64,000 nucleotides of DNA from Candidatus Doudnabacteria bacterium (GCA_963788395.1 CAWBGV010000028.1:18102-82101), one strand, 5' to 3'; numbered from the stretch's first letter, positions 1,573-56,678 are shown. Numbers and translations: made by a program. Notes: a model not told the origin generated them from the sequence alone.

Positions 1573-3500
1573 ATGAATCTTTCTAGCCTGTCTTCTGAAC
1601 TCAATATGTCAGTCCAAGAGCTTCGCGCCAAGTCTCGCGAGAAGGGTTTTTTCATTTCGCCTCGGGCCAATAAGATTGATAATTTTTTAGCCAACCAGAT
1701 AAAAGATGCCTTTACTCCAAAAAAAGCAGTAGTGGCAACAGCGGTTGCCGCCGAGCCGAAAAAGATCAAACTGCCTTCTTTCATAAAGGTTCGGGATTTT
1801 GCCGCTTTGTTACAGTTACCGGTAGTCAATGTGATCAAGGAGTTTATTAAAAATGGCATTATGGCCACCATCAATGAAGAGGTGGATTTTGAAACGGCCA
1901 GCATTGTGGCCACTGACTTGGGTTTTGAGGTTGAAAACGAAGCTGACACAAGCCAAACCGAGTATGGTTTAGGTTTTTTGCAGGAAGTTTTAAAAGCCGA
2001 AAAAGAAGAAAATTTAAAACCCCGCGCGCCGATTGTGGCTATTATGGGTCATGTTGACCACGGAAAAACCACCTTACTCGATACCATTCGGAAGACAAAA
2101 GTGGTTGAAGGCGAATCGGGGGTATTACTCAACACATTGGTGCTTACCAAGCCAAAAAGAACGGTAAAACAATTACTTTTTTAGATACGCCCGGTCATGA
2201 AGCTTTTTCCGAAATGCGCGCCCGCGGCGCCAACGTTACCGACATAATCGTTTTGGTAGTTGCCGCCGATGATGGCGTGCGCCCGCAAACCGTAGAAGTG
2301 ATTAATCGGGCCAAATTTACTAATACACCGTTGATCGTGGCTATTAATAAAGTCGATAAACCGGACGCTAATATTATGCGGGTTAAGCAGGAACTGGCCG
2401 GCCAGGGTGTGTTAACGGAAGAATGGGGTGGTAAAGTTATAGCGGTGGAAATTTCGGCTAAACAAAATAAAGGCATAGATAGCCTGTTGGAAATGATATT
2501 GCTGACGGCAGAACTGGAAAATTTTCGCGCGAACCCTAACGGCAAAACAATAGGAACGATTATCGAATCAAAAATCAGCCAGGGCAAAGGCTCTACGGCT
2601 ACAGTGATTGTCCAAAACGGCCACTTAAAAGTTGGTGATATTATAGTTGCCGGTGCGGCTTTTGGCCGGGTACGCAGCCTGGAAGACGAAACTGGCCGTA
2701 AACTGAAAGAAGCCGGGCCATCGATGCCGGCGCAAATTTCTGGATTGTCGGAAGTTGCCCAGGCCGGAGACATCTTGCAGACTGTAGCGACCCTGGATGA
2801 AGCTAAACAAATTGCCTCGACCATTAAACGCAAGAACCGGAGCCATCATCTTTCCAGCAAGCAATCCTTGCAGGGCGATGTAGAGAACAAAACGCTTAAT
2901 TTAATTTTAAAAACGGACGTAGCCGGATCTTTGGAAGCTATCAAGCAATCTATTGCGAAATTAAAAAACGACGAAGTGCGGATTAATATTTTAAGTGAAG
3001 GCGTTGGCGAAGTTAACGAATCGGATGTGTTACTGGCAGCTAACTCCAAAGCCAGTATTCTCAATTTTCACAGCAAAGTGAATCCCAAAGCCGTGAACCT
3101 GGCCAAGCAAAAGCAAGTAATGATAGATTCTTATGACGTAATCTATGAGCTGATTGAAGACGTAACCAGCGCGGTGATTAAAATGTTTACGCCGGAACTG
3201 GAAAAGCATTCTTTTGGTAAAGCTAAAGTTTTGGCAATTTTCCGAACCGAAAAACTGCAAATGATTATTGGCGGACGCACCGAAGAAGGCGAAATCCGCA
3301 AGAATGGCCAAATTGCCATTTGGCGCGAAGACGCCGAACTTGGCCGCGGTGAAATTACCGAACTCCAACAGAACAAATCCACGGCCAAAGCAGTCGCGGC
3401 CGGCAATGAATTCGGCATGAAAATTAAGACGCAGGTTAAAATCAAAGAAGGCGACGTGCTGGAGAGTTTTGAAGAAAAGATTAAACAAAAGACATTGTAG
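1573..3500 (+). CDS. infB: translation initiation factor IF-2, one apparent frameshift
   Basis: [12 protein letters not shown] (G1), then after the shift [11 protein letters not shown].../[20 protein letters not shown], and IF-2 C-terminal domains. ORFs 1573-2184 and 2214-3500 join if one G is added to the G5 run at 2118-2122. Confidence 0.9.
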
Positions 3501-5122: not shown

Positions 5123-5139
5123 CTGATCACGGATATAAA

Positions 5140-5166
5140 AACACCGGCTATGCTCGGTGTTTTTTT
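5140..5166. terminator. bidirectional rho-independent terminator
   Basis: aacaccg / cggtgtt stem flanked by an A-run and a T-run, between convergent genes. Confidence 0.7.
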
Positions 5167-5196
5167 GGATCATCTGTGCTATTTGCGTATCCGCGA

Positions 5197-5754
5197 TCAT
5201 TTCTTCATTGCTTCCGCGGCCCCAATTAAATTTTTAATTAACCCGTCTATTGCTTTTACGTAAGTTAGGTTAATTAATTCTGATTGTTGATTAAAGGCTT
5301 CGGCGACCGGACCGAATAAAACTGTTTCGCGAATGTCGTACATGGCAAAATTGGCCATGAGAGGGCGAAGCTGTTCAACTACGCGGGCCGCGCCAATGCG
5401 TCCGTTGGAAACCCCGACCAAACCTACCGGTTTGTTGTTGAATTCCGGATAGAGCCAGTCGAAGGCATTTTTCAAAACACCCGGCACGCCATGATTGTAT
5501 TCCGGGGTCACAATTATAAAACCGTCGGCTTTCTGGGCTATATTGCTCCAGGCTTGGACGTTGGGATAAGGATATTGTTTATTAAGTTTGGAAGGTTCCA
5601 CCGCCGAATCCATAAACGGCAGTGGTAATTCTTTAAAATCAACGAGCTGGCTTTCATACCCCGCCTCTTGCAACTTTTTGACCATAAACCGCGCCGGATA
5701 AACGCTCCAGCGTTCATTACGCACACTGCCGAGGATAACGGGAATGGTAAGCAT
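5197..5754 (-). CDS. NAD(P)H-dependent FMN reductase
   Basis: IPVILGSVRNERWS, VTPEYNHGVPGVLKNAFDWL. The start was moved to the internal ATG (MLTIPV) at 5754, because the upstream part of the ORF runs into the repeat array. Confidence 0.8.
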   Translation of the reverse strand: MLTIPVILGSVRNERWSVYPARFMVKKLQEAGYESQLVDFKELPLPFMDSAVEPSKLNKQYPYPNVQAWSNIAQKADGFIIVTPEYNHGVPGVLKNAFDWLYPEFNNKPVGLVGVSNGRIGAARVVEQLRPLMANFAMYDIRETVLFGPVAEAFNQQSELINLTYVKAIDGLIKNLIGAAEAMKK

Positions 5755-5838
5755 AGAAATTAAAATAGTAACCCAACAAATTTTCCCTAAAGGAAAATTG
5801 GCAAACCAACTGCTAGTAATAACTAAGCTGTTCCTTGC

Positions 5839-6199
5839 GGGGCCCCCGATCCGCCCGAGACGGATTGGGGAAAGGGGCAACAATCCGAACGTAATGGAGT
5901 CGCGTCCGACGCGGACGGAATGGAGTGAGGATTGATTATTTCCTTTTCAGGGCCCCCAATTTTCCATCCCTAGAAAAAAATCATAGGGAAAATTGGGGAA
6001 AGGGGCAACAATCCGAACGTAATGGAGTCGCGTCCGACGCGGACGGAATGGAGTGAGGATTGATTATTTCCTTTTCAGGGCCCCCAATTTTCCATCCCTA
6101 GAAAAAAATCATAGGGAAAATTGGGAAAAGGGGCAACAATCCGAACGTAATGGAGTCGCGTCCGACGCGGACGGAATGGAGTGAGGATTGATTGACCCG
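5839..6199 (-). repeat. tRNA-trailer repeat family, 3 tandem units (128-bp period)
   Basis: The unit ...ggggcaacaatccgaacgtaatggagtcgcgtccgacgcggacggaatggagtgaggattgatt... occurs three times. The junction word cagggccccc recurs at 5948 and 6076. The array abuts the CCA end of tRNA-Leu. Confidence 0.9.
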
Positions 6200-6287
6200 T
6201 GGTGCCCGGGAGAGGATTCGAACCTCCAAGCCCTTGCGGGCGCTGCCACCTCAAGGCAGTGTGTCTCGCCAGTTGCACCACCCGGGC
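6200..6287 (-). tRNA. tRNA-Leu(GAG)
   Basis: Manual cloverleaf: acceptor GCCCGGG/CCCGGGC, anticodon loop TTGAGGT, long variable arm, T-loop TTCGAAT, encoded CCA. Confidence 0.9.
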
Positions 6288-6410
6288 AAATTATTTTTGC
6301 TTCACAATTATAACTGAAACGCTGGTACAAAACAAGAGGTGCTAATAATTGTATAATCTGCTACTATACTCAATAAGGCTTACCAACTTCAAGTTGATTC
6401 TCCCGTTTTT

Positions 6411-6794: not shown

Positions 6795-7517
6795 TTAATC
6801 CCGGCGACCGCCTTCTTGCTCATCTAAATTGGGGGAGCGCCGCGGAATATTGGAATCTATGTGCCCAAACGAAAATTCGTCTTCCGTCGGCGAATAATCT
6901 GGCGAGGTATTTGCTTCCTCTCTTTCCAGGTCCGCCAATTTTGCTTCGTCAGTTGCCGCAGGGCGTCTGGCTGTGAACTGCCAATTGAAGCGGTTTTCTA
7001 AAACCTTAACCTCATTACCTTTTTGCAAATACCAGCTTATAAATTTAGTCCATTGAGGTTTGTCTTTTGGCAATTCCAGCAGATTAAAATCTTTAATATT
7101 ATTATCGCGCAGATATTGTCCAAGCGGTTTTAATTCTTCTTCGTTCAGTATGTAGTAAAGCTGTTTTTGAAATTCTATAACAATTTTTCTTAAGATAGCA
7201 ATATGGGCAGAGTCTTCATAACCGGCAGATTTAAAATAACCTTCCATAAATTTGTCACCCCAAGCGCCAAGATCGGAAGGGCGTCTGAGTAAATGCTGTT
7301 TAAAATAAGATCTCGCAAAATTGGCCGCAAGACCAACTGTAGTCGGCGCAACTTGTCCATATTTATTTTGGACTTCGTTCATAACCTCGGAAACCATAGC
7401 TGGCAAAAGGTCGACTATACGCGCTTCAACCTGCTGCTGCTTTGTGTCCTCCGAATCCCGTTCATATTGATTTTCACGTTCCATAGCTTTATGCGTCTTT
7501 AATTGTTCATGTACCAA
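6795..7517 (-). CDS. hypothetical protein
   Basis: 240-aa ORF with no motif I recognise. Confidence 0.5.
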   Translation of the reverse strand: MVHEQLKTHKAMERENQYERDSEDTKQQQVEARIVDLLPAMVSEVMNEVQNKYGQVAPTTVGLAANFARSYFKQHLLRRPSDLGAWGDKFMEGYFKSAGYEDSAHIAILRKIVIEFQKQLYYILNEEELKPLGQYLRDNNIKDFNLLELPKDKPQWTKFISWYLQKGNEVKVLENRFNWQFTARRPAATDEAKLADLEREEANTSPDYSPTEDEFSFGHIDSNIPRRSPNLDEQEGGRRD

Positions 7518-29935: not shown

Positions 29936-30002
29936 GTTAGGTTTTATATATTATATAGGTAACAAACAAAAGATTCAATCCAAATTGTGTAACTTAACTG
30001 TT

Positions 30003-30611
30003 CCCATCCGGGCCCTAAATTTTCTCGCCGTTTCCAAATGGAAAATTTGGGGTAAGGGGCAACACCCCGAACGTAACGGAGTGGCCGCCGAGTAGGCGGA
30101 CACGGAGTGGAGTGAGGGTTGATTGACTGTATCTTTTGGGGCCCCCAATTTTTCTAGCAAGGAAAATTGGGGAAAGGGGCAACAACCCGAACGAACGGAG
30201 TGGCCGCCGAGTAGGCGGACACGGAGTGGAGTGAGGGTTGATTGACTGTATCTTTTGGGGTCCCCCAATTTTTCTAGCAAGGAAAATTGGGGAAAGGGGC
30301 AACAACCCGAACGTAACGGAGTGGCCGCCGAGTAGGCGGACACGGAGTGGAGTGAGGGTTGATTGACTGTATCTTTTGGGGTCCCCAATTTTTCTAGCAA
30401 GGAAAATTGGGGAAAGGGGCAACAACCCGAACGTAACGGAGTGGCCGCCGAGTAGGCGGACACGGAGTGGAGTGAGGGTTGATTGACTGTATCTTTTGGT
30501 GCTCCCCAATTTTTCTAGCAAGGGAAATTGGGGAAAGGGGCAACAACCCGAACGAAACGGAGTGGCCGCCGAGTAGGCGGACACGGAGTGGAGTGAGGGT
30601 TGATTGACCCG
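30003..30611 (-). repeat. tRNA-trailer repeat family, 5 tandem units (119-121-bp period)
   Basis: The junction word tgtatcttttgg occurs at 30128, 30247, 30368 and 30488. The units are near-identical, and the last abuts the CCA of tRNA-Phe. Confidence 0.95.
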
Positions 30612-30686
30612 TGGTGCCGGGCCCCAGAGTCGAACTGGGCACGCCTGCCTCTTCAGGGCAGCGCTCTACCGATGAGCTAGCCCGGC
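30612..30686 (-). tRNA. tRNA-Phe(GAA)
   Basis: GCCGGGC…GCCCGGC, anticodon loop CTGAAGA, T-loop TTCGACT, encoded CCA. Confidence 0.9.
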
Positions 30687-30742
30687 ACGTCGTCGCACTT
30701 TATTCCGGCCTACGAGAATGAATTAAAACCAGCCTCCATAAA

Positions 30743-30941
30743 GTGTTCCTCTTCCCCAAATTCCTTTTCTCTATGTTTTTTCTTCGCTTCGCTTCGAAAA
30801 AACTAAATGTGAAAAGCAATTCGGGGTCCTGCCAATTTTCCATCCCAAATTCAATTGGGAAAATTGGGGCAAGGGGCAACACCCTGAACGTAACGGAGTC
30901 GCGTCCGACGCGACGGAATGGAGTGAAGGGTGATTGACCCG
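30743..30941 (-). repeat. tRNA-trailer repeat family, composite copy (standard unit + inverted long-loop hairpin module)
   Basis: 30823-30941 is a standard unit abutting the tRNA-Val CCA. 30743-30826 is the reverse complement of 47871-47965 in the 16S insertion. Confidence 0.85.
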
Positions 30942-31018
30942 TGGTGGGCGATAAAGGATTCGAACCTTTGGCCTCCTCGGTGTAAACGAGGCGCTCTAAC
31001 CAACTGAGCTAATCGCCC
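30942..31018 (-). tRNA. tRNA-Val(UAC)
   Basis: GGGCGAT…ATCGCCC, anticodon loop TTTACAC, T-loop TTCGAAT, CCA. Confidence 0.9.
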
Positions 31019-32159: not shown

Positions 32160-32234
32160 GGTGCAGTGGCGAAGTGGTAACGCGGCGGTCTGCAAAACCG
32201 CAATGCATGGGTTCGATTCCCATCTGCACCTCCA
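32160..32234 (+). tRNA. tRNA-Cys(GCA)
   Basis: GGTGCAG…CTGCACC, anticodon loop CTGCAAA, T-loop TTCGATT, CCA. Confidence 0.9.
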
Positions 32235-32345
32235 CGGGTCAATCAACCCTCACTCTGCTTCGTCCGCCTCGGGCGGACTCCGCTGCGTTCAGGTTGTTGC
32301 CCCTTACCCCAAATTTTCCCTGCTGGAAAAATTTGTGGGCCCCGA
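32235..32345 (+). repeat. tRNA-trailer repeat family, single unit (plus orientation)
   Basis: cgggtcaatcaaccctcactctgcttcg-[tccgcctcgggcgga]-ctccgctgcgttcaggttgttgcccc-ttaccccaaattttcc/ctgct/ggaaaaatttgtggg-ccccgatggg, directly after the CCA. Confidence 0.9.
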
Positions 32346-32378
32346 TGGGAACAGCAAAAGCGGGGCAAAAAGCAATAG

Positions 32379-32464
32379 GCCCGAGTGGCGGAATGGCATA
32401 CGCTATCGACTTAAAATCGATCGCCCTTACGGGATTGAGGGTTCGACTCCCTCCTCGGGCACCA
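32379..32464 (+). tRNA. tRNA-Leu(UAA)
   Basis: GCCCGAG…CTCGGGC, anticodon loop CTTAAAA, long variable arm, CCA. Confidence 0.9.
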
Positions 32465-39238: not shown

Positions 39239-39282
39239 GCTAAAAAATAAATTTTTGAAATGGGAGGATTGGTTTTATTGTT

Positions 39283-39404
39283 CCCATCGGGGGCCCCAAA
39301 TTTTCTCGCAATATCCAAAAGGAAAATTTGGGGAAAGGGGCATTGACCGAACGAAGCGGAGTCCGCCCGAGGCGGACGAAGCGGAGTGAGTAATAATTGA
39401 CCCG
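39283..39404 (-). repeat. tRNA-trailer repeat family, single unit
   Basis: Same architecture as 32235-32345. It abuts the CCA of tRNA-Ile. Confidence 0.9.
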
Positions 39405-39480
39405 TGGTGGGCGTGCTAGGACTCGAACCTAGGACCAATCGTGTATAAGACGACCGCTCTACCAACTGAGCTACACGCCC
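39405..39480 (-). tRNA. tRNA-Ile(UAU)
   Basis: GGGCGTG TA GCTC AGTTGGTA GAGC G GTCGT CTTATAC ACGAT TGGTC CTAGG TTCGAGT CCTAG CACGCCC A CCA. Positions 34-36 are TAT. Confidence 0.8.
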
Positions 39481-46920: not shown

Positions 46921-47623
46921 GACATGCAAGTCGAGTGGGTTTAGACCCACGGCGAACGGGTGAGTAATACCTAGGAATGTCCTTTAAGTTGAGCATATCC
47001 CATCGAAAGATGGTGCAATACTCAATGTGAACAGTGCAAGCACTGTAGATCCCGTTACTGGAATTTACAACGCTTGCGTTTTTAAAGTCGCAAGACGCTT
47101 AAAGCGCAGCCTGGGCACCATCAGCTAGTTGGTAAGGTAATGGCTTACCAAGGCTATGACGGTTAGGGGCCCCGAGAGGGGAAACCCCCACACTGGAACT
47201 GCGACACGGTCCAGACTCCTACGGGAGGCAGCAGTTTGGAATTTTGGACAATGGGCGAAAGCCTGATCCAGCGACGCCGCGTGGACGATGAAGGCCTTCG
47301 GGTCGTAAAGTCCTTTTGCTCGGGAACAATTTTTGAGCGTACCGAGAGAATAAGAGGTTGCTAACTCTGTAAGCCCACACAGGTGGGTTGGTGCAGAGAG
47401 GGTGTAGTAATACATCCTAAGAAAATTTCGCTATATGCTGGAACACCTTGTAAGTTCTGTAGTACTTCCAAAAGAAGTGACAATCTACAGGAAACCCAAA
47501 AAAACGCACCGCTGCGTATAAGGGTTGCAAGACAATCAGCAGGCAATCCTGACGTAAATTTTTGGAAAAAAGAAAACGGAGACAGCCAGTAGCTATCCCC
47601 GTCATGTATTTGGTTTTTGGTTA

Positions 47624-47695
47624 TCATCGGTCAGCGGTTCTATACAAGATGCCGACTACCCCTACGATTACAGTAATTACGATAATCAACCACAT
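47624..47695 (-). CDS. 23-aa hydrophobic peptide encoded antisense within the 16S insertion
   Basis: aaggagg, 7 nt, ATG, MWLIIVITVIVGVVGILYRTADR*. Its stop overlaps (ATGA) the start of the 88-aa ORF 47361-47627. Confidence 0.4.
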   Translation of the reverse strand: MWLIIVITVIVGVVGILYRTADR

Positions 47696-47718
47696 ATTTC
47701 ATCCTCCTTGAACCGTTT

Positions 47719-47747
47719 AAGATAACACAAGTGGATGATCAAGTCAA
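47719..47747 (-). promoter_or_regulatory. sigma70-type promoter for the antisense peptide cassette
   Basis: On the minus strand: TTGACT, 17 nt, TATCTT, about 20 nt upstream of the SD. Confidence 0.45.
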
Positions 47748-48391
47748 TACAGTTGGCTTCCAAAAATTTGCGTCAGGCGAGCCTCAGAGACTACACGCGA
47801 AACTCCCACGTTAAGGTGGGATGATGATATAGTCCACGCTTCATGGCGACATGAAGACCTGGTCCCGAAAGGGGCCCCCAAATTGCTTTTTACATTTTAG
47901 TTTTTTCGACCGAGAGGGAGAAAAAAACATAGAGAAAAGGAATTTGGGGAAGAGGAGCGCTTCACGGAGACGGCACAAAATAAATTTACAATTTATTTTG
48001 TGGAGTCGGAGTGAAGGGCGACGAGCCAGCAGCAGCGGTAATACAGAGACCTCAAGCGTTATCCGGAATCATTGGGCGTAAAGCGTACCGATAGGTGGTT
48101 TACAAAGTCAGAAGTGAAATCCAAAGCTTAACTTTGGGACTGTCTTTTGAAACTTGTAAACTAGAGGGGCAAAGAGGAAGCTGGAACGAACGGTGTAGTA
48201 GTGAAATGCGTTGATATCGTTCGGAACACCAATAGCGTAGGCAGGCTTCTGGGTGCCACCTGACACTGCTAGGACGAAAGCGTGGGGAGCGAATGGGATT
48301 AGATACCCCAGTAGTCCACGCTGTAAACGATGATGATTAGGTGCTAGAGAGTATCGACCCTCTTTAGTACCATAGCTAACGCGTTAAATCA

Positions 48392-49290: not shown

Positions 49291-49365
49291 ATGTTCTATG
49301 CAAAAACGTCACTTGAATCAACCGCTAAAGTAGGAACTTTAGCGCCAATCTCCAATGATTTGACA

Positions 49366-50262
49366 ATGAGCCAGCTCATTCCGCAGTTCCTGAAGTACGG
49401 CCAGTTTGAATTAATGTTCTCACAAAACACGCTTTTAAAATACGACGAGTGCTTAAAGTGGGTAGTCAGGGACATCGGCGACGTGAAGGTCACCGAATTA
49501 AACCTATTCCATTTCACTGAATTAAAGCAAATAATAACGAACCGTGGTTGCGGCACCAGCCGTGTTGCTTCCATGGTGTTTTCCATGAAAAGTTTCCTAA
49601 AGTATTGCAAGGACTATCTGGAGTTGCCGGTGATGGATTACAAAAAAATCCGTAGCCCAAGGTTTAAGCGCCGGGAAGTGATTTACTTAACTAATGAAGA
49701 AATTGAGCGATTTGTCAGCGCCATTAAAATAAAGAATGGCCCTCGCGCTACTAAGCCGGTGCGTATGGACGGCCTAAGATTTAGGGTCTTGGTAGAAGTC
49801 CTTCTTGGTACCGGCATGCGCATCTCTGAAGCTTTGTCACTAAACCGCGATATGGTCGATTTTGAAAAGGCTGAGGCCAAGATTATCGGCAAAGGCAGCA
49901 AGGAACGCACCGTGTTTTTTAGCAAGCGGTCGCTGGATTGGGTTAAACGTTATCTGTCCCTACGCACAGACAATGAACCCGCATTGTTTCTCACCCAGCA
50001 GAATACGCGCCTGTCCAAGATAGATGTCCCCGGCTTCTTTAAGCGCTACAGCAAGAAGGCCGGTATAACCAAGAAACTGACGCCGCACGTGCTCAGGCAT
50101 ACCTGCGCCACAAACCTGTTGTTTAACGGCTGTCCCATAAATAACGTTCAAGTAATTTTAGGCCATGACCGCTTGGAAACCACTTGCCGTTATTATCTCG
50201 GCGTTGACAAAACTAAGGCCAAGGAAGCGCACGGCAATTATTTAAATTATCAATTGTCGTAA
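49366..50262 (+). CDS. tyrosine recombinase (XerC/D-like integrase)
   Basis: SAM-like N-domain, then ARMDGLRFRVLVEVLLGTGMRISE, HVLRHTCAT, LGHDRLETTCRYY. The ORF opens at 49291, directly after the terminator, so the internal ATG (MSQLIPQF) is preferred. Confidence 0.8.
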   Translation: MSQLIPQFLKYGQFELMFSQNTLLKYDECLKWVVRDIGDVKVTELNLFHFTELKQIITNRGCGTSRVASMVFSMKSFLKYCKDYLELPVMDYKKIRSPRFKRREVIYLTNEEIERFVSAIKIKNGPRATKPVRMDGLRFRVLVEVLLGTGMRISEALSLNRDMVDFEKAEAKIIGKGSKERTVFFSKRSLDWVKRYLSLRTDNEPALFLTQQNTRLSKIDVPGFFKRYSKKAGITKKLTPHVLRHTCATNLLFNGCPINNVQVILGHDRLETTCRYYLGVDKTKAKEAHGNYLNYQLS

Positions 50263-51038
50263 TTCATGAACTTTGTGTGTGCCGCTTTCAGCGCCCGTTT
50301 ATCGGTTCCCAGATAATACTGGGCCGTGGTGCGAATGTCCGAGTGCCCCAAAAGTTCCTGAATATACCGGATGTCGCAGCCATTTTCCAACATGATCGTC
50401 GCGGCAGTGTGCCGCAGCGTATGCGGCGTGACTTTTTTCTTGATCCCGGCCTTGGCGGCGTATCTTCGAAATTCCTTGCCCAAATCGTAACGAGCAAGCC
50501 GCTTGGCTTTGCCGAACGTCACGAACAAGGCCGGGTTGTCATCGGTTCGGCTTTGCAGGTACTTGTTTATCCATTCCAAAGCGCGGTCGTTGAAGAAGAC
50601 CACTAATTCCTTATTGCCCTTAACGATGATCGTCGCCTCTTTTGTCTGCAAATTTATACTGTCGCGGTTAAGGTTTAAAGTTTCCGAAATGCGGCCGCCG
50701 GTGTCTAAGAGCACTTCCATTAAGGTTCTTGCTCTTAAGCCGTATTTAGTATTAACGTCAATGCTGCCTAACAGCTGCCGGACCTCGTCTTTGGTGAGGA
50801 AGACAACTTGGCGTTTTGGGATTTTCATGGGCTTGATCTCCTTTGGATCTAAAGTCGGGAGTTTATGAACATCCCGACAATAAGTTAAAAATTTTCTTAA
50901 TGAATAGACGAATGAATTGACTCGGGAAGGGCCGCAGCCGCGCCCCGTTGCGCGGGAGATCCGCGCCAGGGTTTGTTTTTTTATTTTAGTGACGTGCTCA
51001 AGCCTTAAATCAGACGGGTTTTGAACTTCGGGAAGCAT
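50250..51038 (-). CDS. tyrosine recombinase (XerC/D-like integrase)
   Basis: GLRARTLMEVLLDTGGRISE, HTLRHTAAT, LGHSDIRTTAQYY. It converges on the previous gene, and their 3' ends overlap by 13 nt. Confidence 0.85.
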   Translation of the reverse strand: MLPEVQNPSDLRLEHVTKIKKQTLARISRATGRGCGPSRVNSFVYSLRKFLTYCRDVHKLPTLDPKEIKPMKIPKRQVVFLTKDEVRQLLGSIDVNTKYGLRARTLMEVLLDTGGRISETLNLNRDSINLQTKEATIIVKGNKELVVFFNDRALEWINKYLQSRTDDNPALFVTFGKAKRLARYDLGKEFRRYAAKAGIKKKVTPHTLRHTAATIMLENGCDIRYIQELLGHSDIRTTAQYYLGTDKRALKAAHTKFMNYDN

Positions 51039-56226: not shown

Positions 56227-56678
56227 AAGATATTACCTTTCTGCCGGCGTAGATAGCACGAAGCCCCGCGCCAGCCGATCCCTTGCGGGATCCATACCCG
56301 TTTCCGGATATGGCCATAGAAAGCTGCTGAACGCGGGGTTCAGTGCTTTCTATGGTCTTGAGCGCCATGCCACCAGCTTGCGCTGGGGGTTTAGGCATTA
56401 AGTTGTTATTTGGATTATAAATCAAAAACACCTTAAAATCAAGGTTTTTTATGCAATTATACCTTTGAGCTAAGGGGATCCTATTTTTTTGACTTACTTC
56501 TAATAATTATCACCTCTACGTTCCCATGCCAGTCAAAAATTCAGATCAGGGGTCGTCGGCCTAATATCTTTCGCTATAATATGCAACCATTATTGTATCG
56601 CCACCAATTCGATTTTTTGTTATGATAATAAAGAATTTAAGCAAAAATTAGGTATTAAATATCCTAAAATAAGACAAG

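Follow-up and report, generated by a model that had tools for sequence, protein, structure and literature searches.

A structured repeat with covariation support that adjoins tRNA 3′ ends in some Patescibacteria: a candidate pre-tRNA trailer module

The analysed window is a 64,000-nucleotide stretch of DNA from a Candidatus Doudnabacteria bacterium (GCA_963788395.1 CAWBGV010000028.1:18102-82101). On its minus strand, an array of repeats lies between a tRNA gene and a gene for an NAD(P)H-dependent FMN reductase. The tRNA-Leu(GAG) gene occupies positions 6200–6287 and encodes its CCA (ARAGORN; Rfam tRNA model, 43.5 bits). The minus-strand region 6307–6392 contains two promoter-like sites for the tRNA-Leu transcript, each a consensus match only: TTGAAG-18-TATAGT (6392–6363), found by a scan, and TTGTTT (6335–6330)-17-TATAAT (6312–6307), found by eye. 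Tandem Repeats Finder (TRF) places the array at 5864–6193, with a period of 128, 2.6 copies and 99% matches, and the array begins one base past the end of the tRNA. Unit 1 (6072–6199; TRF, covariance model R1, 121.5 bits) consists of a rod module and a hairpin 2, and starts with C-GGGTCAAT directly after the CCA. Unit 2 (5944–6071; TRF, alignment) is an internal copy, 93% identical to unit 1, which does not have the 5′ GGG of the terminal helix. The distal unit 3 (5828–5943; R1, 94.3 bits) has an identical rod, and its tail, CCCCGCAAGGAACAG, is typical of terminal units. The original prediction of three 128-bp units after the CCA of tRNA-Leu(GAG) is borne out by TRF and ARAGORN, its coordinates being off in phase only. 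The distal hairpin 2 is replaced by another sequence that pairs save for one A.C mismatch (CCCCAATCCG/tctcggg/CGGATCGGGG), also as predicted. An isolated hairpin module had been set at 5766–5802; an A/U-rich hairpin resembling a decayed hairpin 2 is present there, 23 nt upstream of the reductase ATG, with a core of CCAATTTTCC/tttag/GGAAAATTTG that covers only 5801–5777 on the minus strand, the remainder being unpaired flank. The R1 scan does not detect this orphan hairpin as a unit. The array is best explained by tandem duplication, at this one locus, of an element tied to tRNA 3′ ends; it has three copies and a decayed hairpin remnant.

The reductase coding sequence (5197–5754, minus strand; Pfam PF03358/PF02525) is a downstream neighbour and not part of the element. 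The 185-aa product read from the ATG at 5754–5752 is an exact database sequence and has 1793 homologues with an FMN_red domain; identity to the best of these, the window's own sequence excluded, is 69%. Exact searches with three proteins of the window, meant to lengthen the contig, gave no record. Ahead of the ATG there is no GGAGG-like Shine-Dalgarno sequence, and the scan lists no minus-strand terminator-like site in 6200–5754, in agreement with the earlier claims on both points. A good sigma-70-like promoter was likewise not found between the tRNA and the ATG. The scan found only a weak promoter-like TTGCCC-17-TATGAT (9/12) made by the hairpin 2 loop of units 1 and 2 (6108–6136 and 5980–6008, minus strand), which points towards the reductase and does not occur in other units. 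Read-through from the tRNA promoter is a plausible, and the simplest, way to express the reductase of the window, so the idea that the CDS is expressed from the tRNA transcript holds up as plausible on sequence grounds. The accompanying idea of a hairpin that acts on the CDS is not supported: the fold of the 111 nt around the AUG is no better than that of shuffled sequences (z = 0.09) and gives no support to a specific translational role of the orphan hairpin. A further hairpin with T-runs on both sides lies at 5139–5168, between the convergent DHH and reductase genes. It resembles a bidirectional terminator and is not listed by the terminator scan.

Loci with orthologous reductases were compared. 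L020 and L021 have a reductase of 66% identity and share the gene order of the window (RNHCP, tRNA-Leu(GAG), reductase, DHH, RbfA, IF2). The tRNA trailer is there a short remnant hairpin, followed by an obvious intrinsic terminator, a TGTGCTAAAAT extended −10 element and an AAGGAA Shine-Dalgarno sequence. In L019, the tRNA is inverted and the same −10 element is found; the identical elements lie before the reductase orthologues at 5985–6000 in L019 and 5960–5975 in L020. Judging by the position of the −10 element very near the start codons, the L019 reductase mRNA may be leaderless. In L022, other genes stand between the tRNA and the reductase. The array is absent from L019, L020 and L022, which speaks against its proposed tie to the reductase, and L020/L021 have a terminator and a promoter that the window lacks, which makes co-transcription of tRNA-Leu, array and reductase in the window plausible. 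Since the orthologues lack the array and have their own promoters, only the lineage of the window has the array, and the orthologues express the reductase on their own.

The assignment of the Leu array to a wider family, as its second array, was correct and understated. The element follows five of the seven tRNA genes of the window, always as CCA-C-GGGTCAAT, with 11 unit copies in 64 kb. All five occurrences of the 12-mer CCACGGGTCAAT in the window are at tRNA 3′ ends, against 0.16 occurrences expected by chance. The repeat observation is real and far beyond chance. A five-unit array (30002–30611, minus strand; TRF period 120, 97%, with R1 matches) follows tRNA-Phe (30612–30686) within a Val-Phe-Gly tRNA operon, and a single unit (30817–30941, minus strand; R1, 118.9 bits) follows tRNA-Val (30942–31018). 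The unit after tRNA-Cys (32160–32234) lies at 32235–32351 on the plus strand (R1, 108.3 bits) and fills the spacer to tRNA-Leu(taa) at 32379; this position is also occupied in the syntenic locus L001. The unit of tRNA-Ile(tat) (tRNA at 39405–39480, unit at 39281–39404, minus strand; R1, 100.7 bits, and sequence) is followed about 55 nt further on by a hairpin with a T-run, the order being tRNA-Ile, unit, terminator. The operon-final tRNA-Gly and tRNA-Leu(taa) are without a unit. An intrinsic terminator stands directly downstream of tRNA-Gly, and after tRNA-Leu(taa) a terminator follows about 130 nt of unit-free sequence. The location of units between tRNA promoters and operon terminators places them inside tRNA transcription units.

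Several long ORFs run across repeat arrays and tRNA trailers: in the window, 30015–30584 (minus strand, 189 aa) over the Phe array, 6075–6281 (minus strand) and 5744–5935 (plus strand), and in L020 a tRNA trailer (5804–5983) that has been annotated as a 59-aa 'gene'. These are likely annotation artefacts. Elsewhere in the window, a full-length LOOT RNA (Rfam RF03000, 88.9 bits) lies at 56277–56397 on the minus strand, beside a lipoprotein gene. The stretch 8874–29031, which ends near tRNA-Gly, may be an integrated element; it has genes for an rve-like integrase and a serine resolvase, together with Fic, GGDEF and PIN genes and numerous ORFs that match nothing in Pfam. Two tyrosine recombinase genes stand back to back just after the 16S rRNA gene (49291–51038).

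The fold of the unit was derived from an alignment of 24 units (A1), with the consensus calculated by RNAalifold and the pairs counted explicitly. The unit forms a 70–85-nt rod, then a second hairpin, then a C-run. From its 5′ start, the rod consists of a terminal helix GGG/CCC, a conserved U.C mismatch, CAA/UUG, a bulged U and a freely covarying 6-bp stem. Its middle contains a 2x2 loop UC/UC, two invariant pairs AC/GU and a 3x3 loop UYC/UNC, and its inner part two covarying pairs (G-C in 13 units and A-U in 11; U-A in 17 and C-G in 6) and a further pyrimidine loop, before a terminal hairpin of variable length and sequence. There are thus three symmetric pyrimidine-only internal loops with 2-bp steps between them, and all unpaired rod positions are pyrimidines on the tRNA strand. 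A linker CUUN joins the rod to hairpin 2, CCCCAAAUUUUCC...GGAAAAUUUGGGG, after which come N and the C-run. Three runs vary together in length, as 4/4/4 or 3/3/3: the C-run on the 5′ side of hairpin 2, the G-run and the C-run of the tail. At all loci, the outer end of the unit has a GGGG-N-CCCC or GGG-NN-CCC palindrome, e.g., at 5841–5849 and 30130–30140, whose runs are in every case as long as the 5′ C-run of hairpin 2.

The predicted pairs are formed in 92.8% of the alignment cells, compared with 78.4% in shuffles, and none of 500 shuffles reached 92.8%; with the partner strand slid along, at most 57.6% were paired. Compensatory, two-sided changes were found in 20 of the 32 pairs, e.g., the stem versions CAATCC/GGATTG, CAACCC/GGGTTG and CACCCT/AGGGTG. 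Non-tandem copies within one genome are only 58–78% identical and keep the fold by compensatory changes, which indicates old copies under structural selection. The loop sequences are strongly conserved, CACU being invariant and CGUU nearly so. RNA selected on one strand normally has far more G.U than A.C mismatches. The stems contain 13 of each, and these counts give no indication that a single RNA strand has been selected. In 21–22 of the 24 units, the antisense strand folds slightly better, because its loops turn into the G.A type, and the z-scores of both strands are similar.

The distribution of the element was studied with a search pattern from the unit interior, in which the CCA was not required, applied to species genomes, metagenome contigs and viral contigs. 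Matches were obtained in two species genomes, L001 (Patescibacteria group bacterium) and L002 (Candidatus Doudnabacteria), and in 16 metagenome contigs, 12 of them true and four (L004, L010, L011 and L013) discarded as chance matches. Nothing resembling the unit was found in viral contigs or in phage and plasmid collections. All the true matches have CCAC directly before the unit. Where the contigs allow, the tRNA (Lys, Arg, Met, Leu(cag), Tyr or Cys) ends exactly one base before the GGG. The element trails tRNAs in 13 further Patescibacteria loci with many isoacceptors, following tRNAs for at least 10 amino acids, and is usually followed by another tRNA or a terminator. Both the junction (CCA + 1 nt) and the orientation are invariant at about 17 independent tRNAs. 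Two tRNA-Met genes among those with a unit one base past the end appear to be interrupted by introns. These genes (L014, about 1960–2374, minus strand; L007, 1–165) are apparently split in the anticodon loop and missed by ARAGORN, and the L014 intron carries a GIY-YIG-like ORF.

L001 shares the Val-Phe-Gly and Cys-Leu(taa) tRNA clusters with the window, with its RNHCP protein only 57% identical. Units or unit variants follow Val, Phe and Cys there, and none follows Gly or Leu(taa), a pattern identical to that of the window. L020 and L024 also have tRNA clusters as in the window, but no canonical unit and other spacer structures; the tRNA-Phe of L020 is 100% identical to that of the window. The unit is thus dispensable for tRNA maturation as such. 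A search of RNHCP neighbourhoods added six loci (L024–L029), in which no canonical unit was found. A different family of trailer hairpins, TGAACC-ACUC...UUCG-GGUUCAUGG-CACGCC, was observed after tRNAs without a unit (L024, 4470–4818, minus strand, and 7336–7466; L001, 2242–2344; L022, 4450–4480). In L024, tRNA-Cys is directly followed by CUCCUUCG, and the resulting CCACUCCUUCG resembles the loop motif of the unit.

Copies in other arrangements were also found. The 16S rRNA gene of the window has a 660-nt insertion in the 530 loop (47361–48032; Rfam alignment of 16S), composed of a group I intron (47361–47856) and a diverged unit-like copy on the minus strand (47863–48032), antisense to the rRNA (R1, 28.7 bits, E 1e-5 over all loci). 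Other antisense copies occur at two intergenic sites of L001 away from any tRNA 3′ end, and one each abuts a tRNA 5′ end in L006 and L016. Displaced copies with bits of a tRNA 3′ end or a pseudo-tRNA were found in L001 (L001c), as the second unit of L009, in L002 and in L003; these features of their sequences suggest spread by segmental duplication of a tRNA end with its unit. Between a complete tRNA and a unit, L002 (3545–3672), L003 (792–905) and L016 (1100–1277) have copies of tRNAs that are truncated or chimeric (3′ halves, acceptor strands with mismatches).

Upstream of tRNA-Phe in the window lies a mirror-image 'leader' rod with purine-rich loops (30687–30790, minus strand), recognised by alignment with six leaders of other loci (L001, 2430–2569, 2761–2900 and 6141–6280; L006, 929–1068; L014, 1425–1564, minus strand; L017, 749–888). 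The order of its parts is hairpin, GGGAAGAGGA, stem, purine loops, hairpin, purine loops, stem, GACGNN and tRNA. Leader rods are related to the reverse complement of the trailer unit and precede internal tRNAs. R1 scores three leaders of other loci (L001, L006 and L017) weakly and on the opposite strand, and does not match the window leader. With a leader rod and a trailer rod, a tRNA is bracketed by two structured flanks. Pairing of leader and trailer around tRNA-Phe was considered and rejected, as the two sequences are not complementary and each flank folds on itself.

The unit was compared with known families of structured RNA and mobile DNA. For the unit, no Rfam family was found at gathering score over the whole window or at E ≤ 10 over the array. 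HDV-like and theta ribozymes form a nested double pseudoknot (P1, P1.1, P2, P3 and P4) that has a catalytic C in J4/2. The covarying helices of the unit, by contrast, are all simply nested, and no HDV-type Rfam match was found in 5700–6300 at E ≤ 10. Theta ribozymes lie at the 3′ edge of a tRNA and cleave at their own 5′ end; the unit, which starts at CCA + 1 nt, agrees with them in position. For hammerhead, twister, twister-sister, pistol, hatchet and hairpin ribozymes, cmscan of both strands at E ≤ 10 gave the tRNA and chance miRNA or snoRNA matches only. The rtT RNA of tyrT repeats (RF00391) had no Rfam model match, and the search for a tRNA or tRNA-like element with ARAGORN and the Rfam tRNA model returned true tRNAs only. 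An intrinsic terminator does not fit either: no sense-strand site was found in 5754–6200, (N)CCCC rather than U follows hairpin 2, and bona fide terminators stand elsewhere, downstream of units. The RNA antitoxins of type III toxin-antitoxin systems are tandem repeats of about 34–40 nt immediately upstream of an endoribonuclease toxin gene; here the units are 120–128 nt long, the downstream gene encodes an FMN reductase (PF03358) and the other arrays lead into tRNAs. Integron attC sites have R″ and R′ boxes (RYYYAAC ... GTTRRRY) flanking an imperfect palindrome, and form cassette arrays. GTTGCCC of the unit does not fit GTTRRRY, and no cassettes lie between units. Elements of the MITE, REP or Correia type have terminal inverted repeats (or GTAG and a palindrome), target-site duplications and many near-identical copies. 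The ends of the unit, GGGTCAAT... and ...GGGGNCCCC, are not inverted repeats, no flanking duplications were found, and the non-tandem copies are, as stated above, 58–78% identical.

Taken together, the unit is an element supported by covariation, apparently not described before, that adjoins tRNA 3′ ends in some Patescibacteria. The reading that we prefer, with a probability of roughly 0.4, is that of a module which is co-transcribed as the pre-tRNA trailer and serves tRNA processing or insulation. It is based on the fixed junction and constant orientation at about 17 independent tRNAs, on the position of units upstream of operon terminators, on the fold kept by compensatory changes in spite of low identity within genomes, on the occupation of the same sites in the window and the distant L001, on the mirror-image leader rods before internal tRNAs and on the precedent of theta ribozymes 3′ of tRNAs (PMC10879173). 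The unit would then belong to the pre-tRNA transcript, as its 3′ trailer or spacer, and would offer in cis a defined cutting place for a structure-specific endonuclease, freeing the tRNA from a downstream tRNA or, at the Leu locus, from the reductase mRNA. Until that cut, it would block 3′ exonucleases. Its copy number could shift through unequal recombination, which may have amplified the Leu array, and new sites could arise through segmental duplications that include a few bases of the tRNA 3′ end. The reductase would probably be expressed by read-through from tRNA-Leu, with the repeats forming a long structured 5′ region by accident of position and not as a dedicated regulator. Several findings count against a trailer RNA: the equal numbers of G.U and A.C mismatches, the slightly better folding of the antisense strand, the antisense copies (tRNA leaders, the 16S insertion, two L001 intergenic sites), the absence of a canonical unit from L020 and L024, and the five near-identical tandem copies after tRNA-Phe, which exceed the need of a processing signal. 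In a bolder version, for one lineage of Patescibacteria, trailer rod and mirror-image leader rod would jointly help to excise tRNAs from their precursors, a type of maturation signal without a counterpart seen in model bacteria; the rods would guide a nuclease or be catalytic themselves. This version appears improbable.

A serious rival, if on balance a doubtful one, is a dispersed DNA repeat comparable to REP/BIME, BOX, ERIC or Correia elements. It would be selfish or neutral, its hairpins would matter for DNA or for its own propagation, and it would gather beside tRNA genes and expand in tandem without a role for the tRNA. The occurrence of copies in both orientations, including the 16S insertion and L001 intergenic regions away from tRNA 3′ ends, is what such a repeat would produce, as are stem mismatches without a strand signal, tandem arrays of 97–99% identity, a patchy distribution among relatives and displaced copies with bits of tRNA 3′ end or pseudo-tRNA. 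Units within one genome are also more alike than units at orthologous sites (Cys and Ile of the window, 78%; Cys of the window and of L001, 47%). Against a mobile repeat stand a junction and orientation that are invariant at about 17 independent tRNAs, and old copies that keep their fold by compensatory changes, unlike typical young MITE families. Neither terminal inverted repeats nor target duplications are present, and phage, plasmid and viral collections hold no similar sequence. A Pfam scan of 40 of the 60 candidate ORFs of the window, the remainder mostly below 200 aa, found no cognate transposase or RAYT and nothing of the HUH or IS200 type, whose substrate is hairpin DNA. The window does have rve-like, resolvase and tyrosine-recombinase genes, none of which adjoins a unit.

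The same strand-neutral mismatches and antisense copies weigh against another, unlikely reading, namely an abundant stand-alone small RNA for which the tRNA would supply the promoter and 5′-processing signal, and which, once freed by the enzymes that process the tRNA, would act in trans as a protein binder or sponge, tandem copies raising its dose. Functional RNAs linked to tRNAs are known, such as the 3′ external transcribed spacer of E. coli leuZ and tRNA-linked snoRNAs and miRNAs. The terminal helix closed by the 5′ GGG and the downstream CCC is like that of many stable small RNAs, the conserved loops (CACU, CGUU) imply sequence-specific recognition, and 11 copies in 64 kb would be compatible with abundance. 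However, the internal units of an array lack the 5′ GGG and have no evident means of being separated. That lack of a terminal helix in internal units also argues against a self-cleaving ribozyme that would cut at its own 5′ edge and so make the tRNA 3′ end, a functional analogue of the HDV-like theta ribozymes. The position, identical to that of theta ribozymes (PMC10879173), the invariant junction, the conserved unpaired nucleotides of the internal loops and a tandem arrangement resembling satellite-type ribozyme arrays would all suit such an activity. It is nevertheless highly unlikely, with every supported helix nested and no double pseudoknot, no match to an Rfam ribozyme family even at E ≤ 10, a cleavage that would leave a cyclic phosphate on the CCA, and tRNAs that encode CCA, whereas 95% of theta-associated ones do not (PMC10879173). 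Hardly probable at all is the reading of the original prediction, in which the repeats and the orphan hairpin form a cis-regulatory leader for translation or processing of the reductase mRNA. The lack of a terminator, good promoter and Shine-Dalgarno sequence ahead of the CDS would be consistent with it, as would the weak promoter-like sites inside units 1 and 2. Yet the element is linked to tRNA 3′ ends and not to the reductase gene, whose orthologues in L019, L020 and L022 do without the array, so a device for the reductase finds no backing; the start region has no special fold, and the orphan hairpin is not conserved.

In Patescibacteria, genomes are very small and the repertoire of RNA-processing enzymes is reduced. 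An element that is conserved, covarying, absent from Rfam and fixed one nucleotide from the CCA gives a concrete handle on the way in which these bacteria mature CCA-encoding tRNAs, should the preferred trailer-module reading hold. As a selfish repeat, it would be a hairpin-repeat family, apparently undescribed for the phylum, that is linked to tRNA ends in an unusual way; in practice it would also cause errors in assembly and annotation, given the spurious ORFs across arrays.

A literature search found no description of the element, and it was compared with known systems that share some of its features. In the 3′ repeats of E. coli tyrT (rtT), units of more than 100 bp stand in tandem immediately after a tRNA gene, are co-transcribed with it and include a few bases of the tRNA 3′ end. 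The Leu array is similar in having tandem repeats of more than 100 bp directly past the tRNA gene. The tyrT repeats are a single-locus feature, whereas the unit has a covarying fold over many tRNA genes and genomes. Theta ribozymes are HDV-like RNAs of phages that lie 3′ of tRNAs, whose trailers they have been proposed to process (PMC10879173). Like the unit, they are structured RNAs a few nucleotides from the tRNA 3′ end and associated with many isoacceptors, and they are co-transcribed with the tRNA (PMC10879173), as is predicted for the unit. They differ in having the HDV double pseudoknot, where the unit has a nested rod and hairpin without an HDV model match, and in belonging to phages of Bacteroidota and Bacillota, with tRNAs mostly without CCA (PMC10879173). 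The unit is chromosomal in Patescibacteria, follows CCA-encoding tRNAs and can be tandem.

REP/BIME, BOX, ERIC and Correia/nemis elements (PMC2267715, PMC2649163) resemble the unit in their length of 100–150 bp, their hairpins, their location in transcribed intergenic regions in either orientation and their modular or tandem organisation. RNase III is reported to be able to bind Correia hairpins and either cleave or protect them (PMC2267715, PMC2649163). Unlike these repeats, the unit has no terminal inverted repeats, GTAG box or target duplication, is strictly attached at CCA + 1, occurs in old, covarying rather than near-identical copies and has no associated transposase that was seen. Leader-trailer stems of rRNA are cleaved by RNase III. 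Like the tRNA flanks considered here, these stems are structures on both sides of a stable RNA in its precursor; they are used for its excision (PMC10250234). In the unit system, by contrast, leader and trailer each fold on themselves, those of tRNA-Phe being non-complementary. In its behaviour, the element lies between the tRNA-attached cis RNAs (theta ribozymes, tyrT/rtT, tRNA spacer RNAs) and the structured intergenic repeats (BOX, ERIC, Correia).
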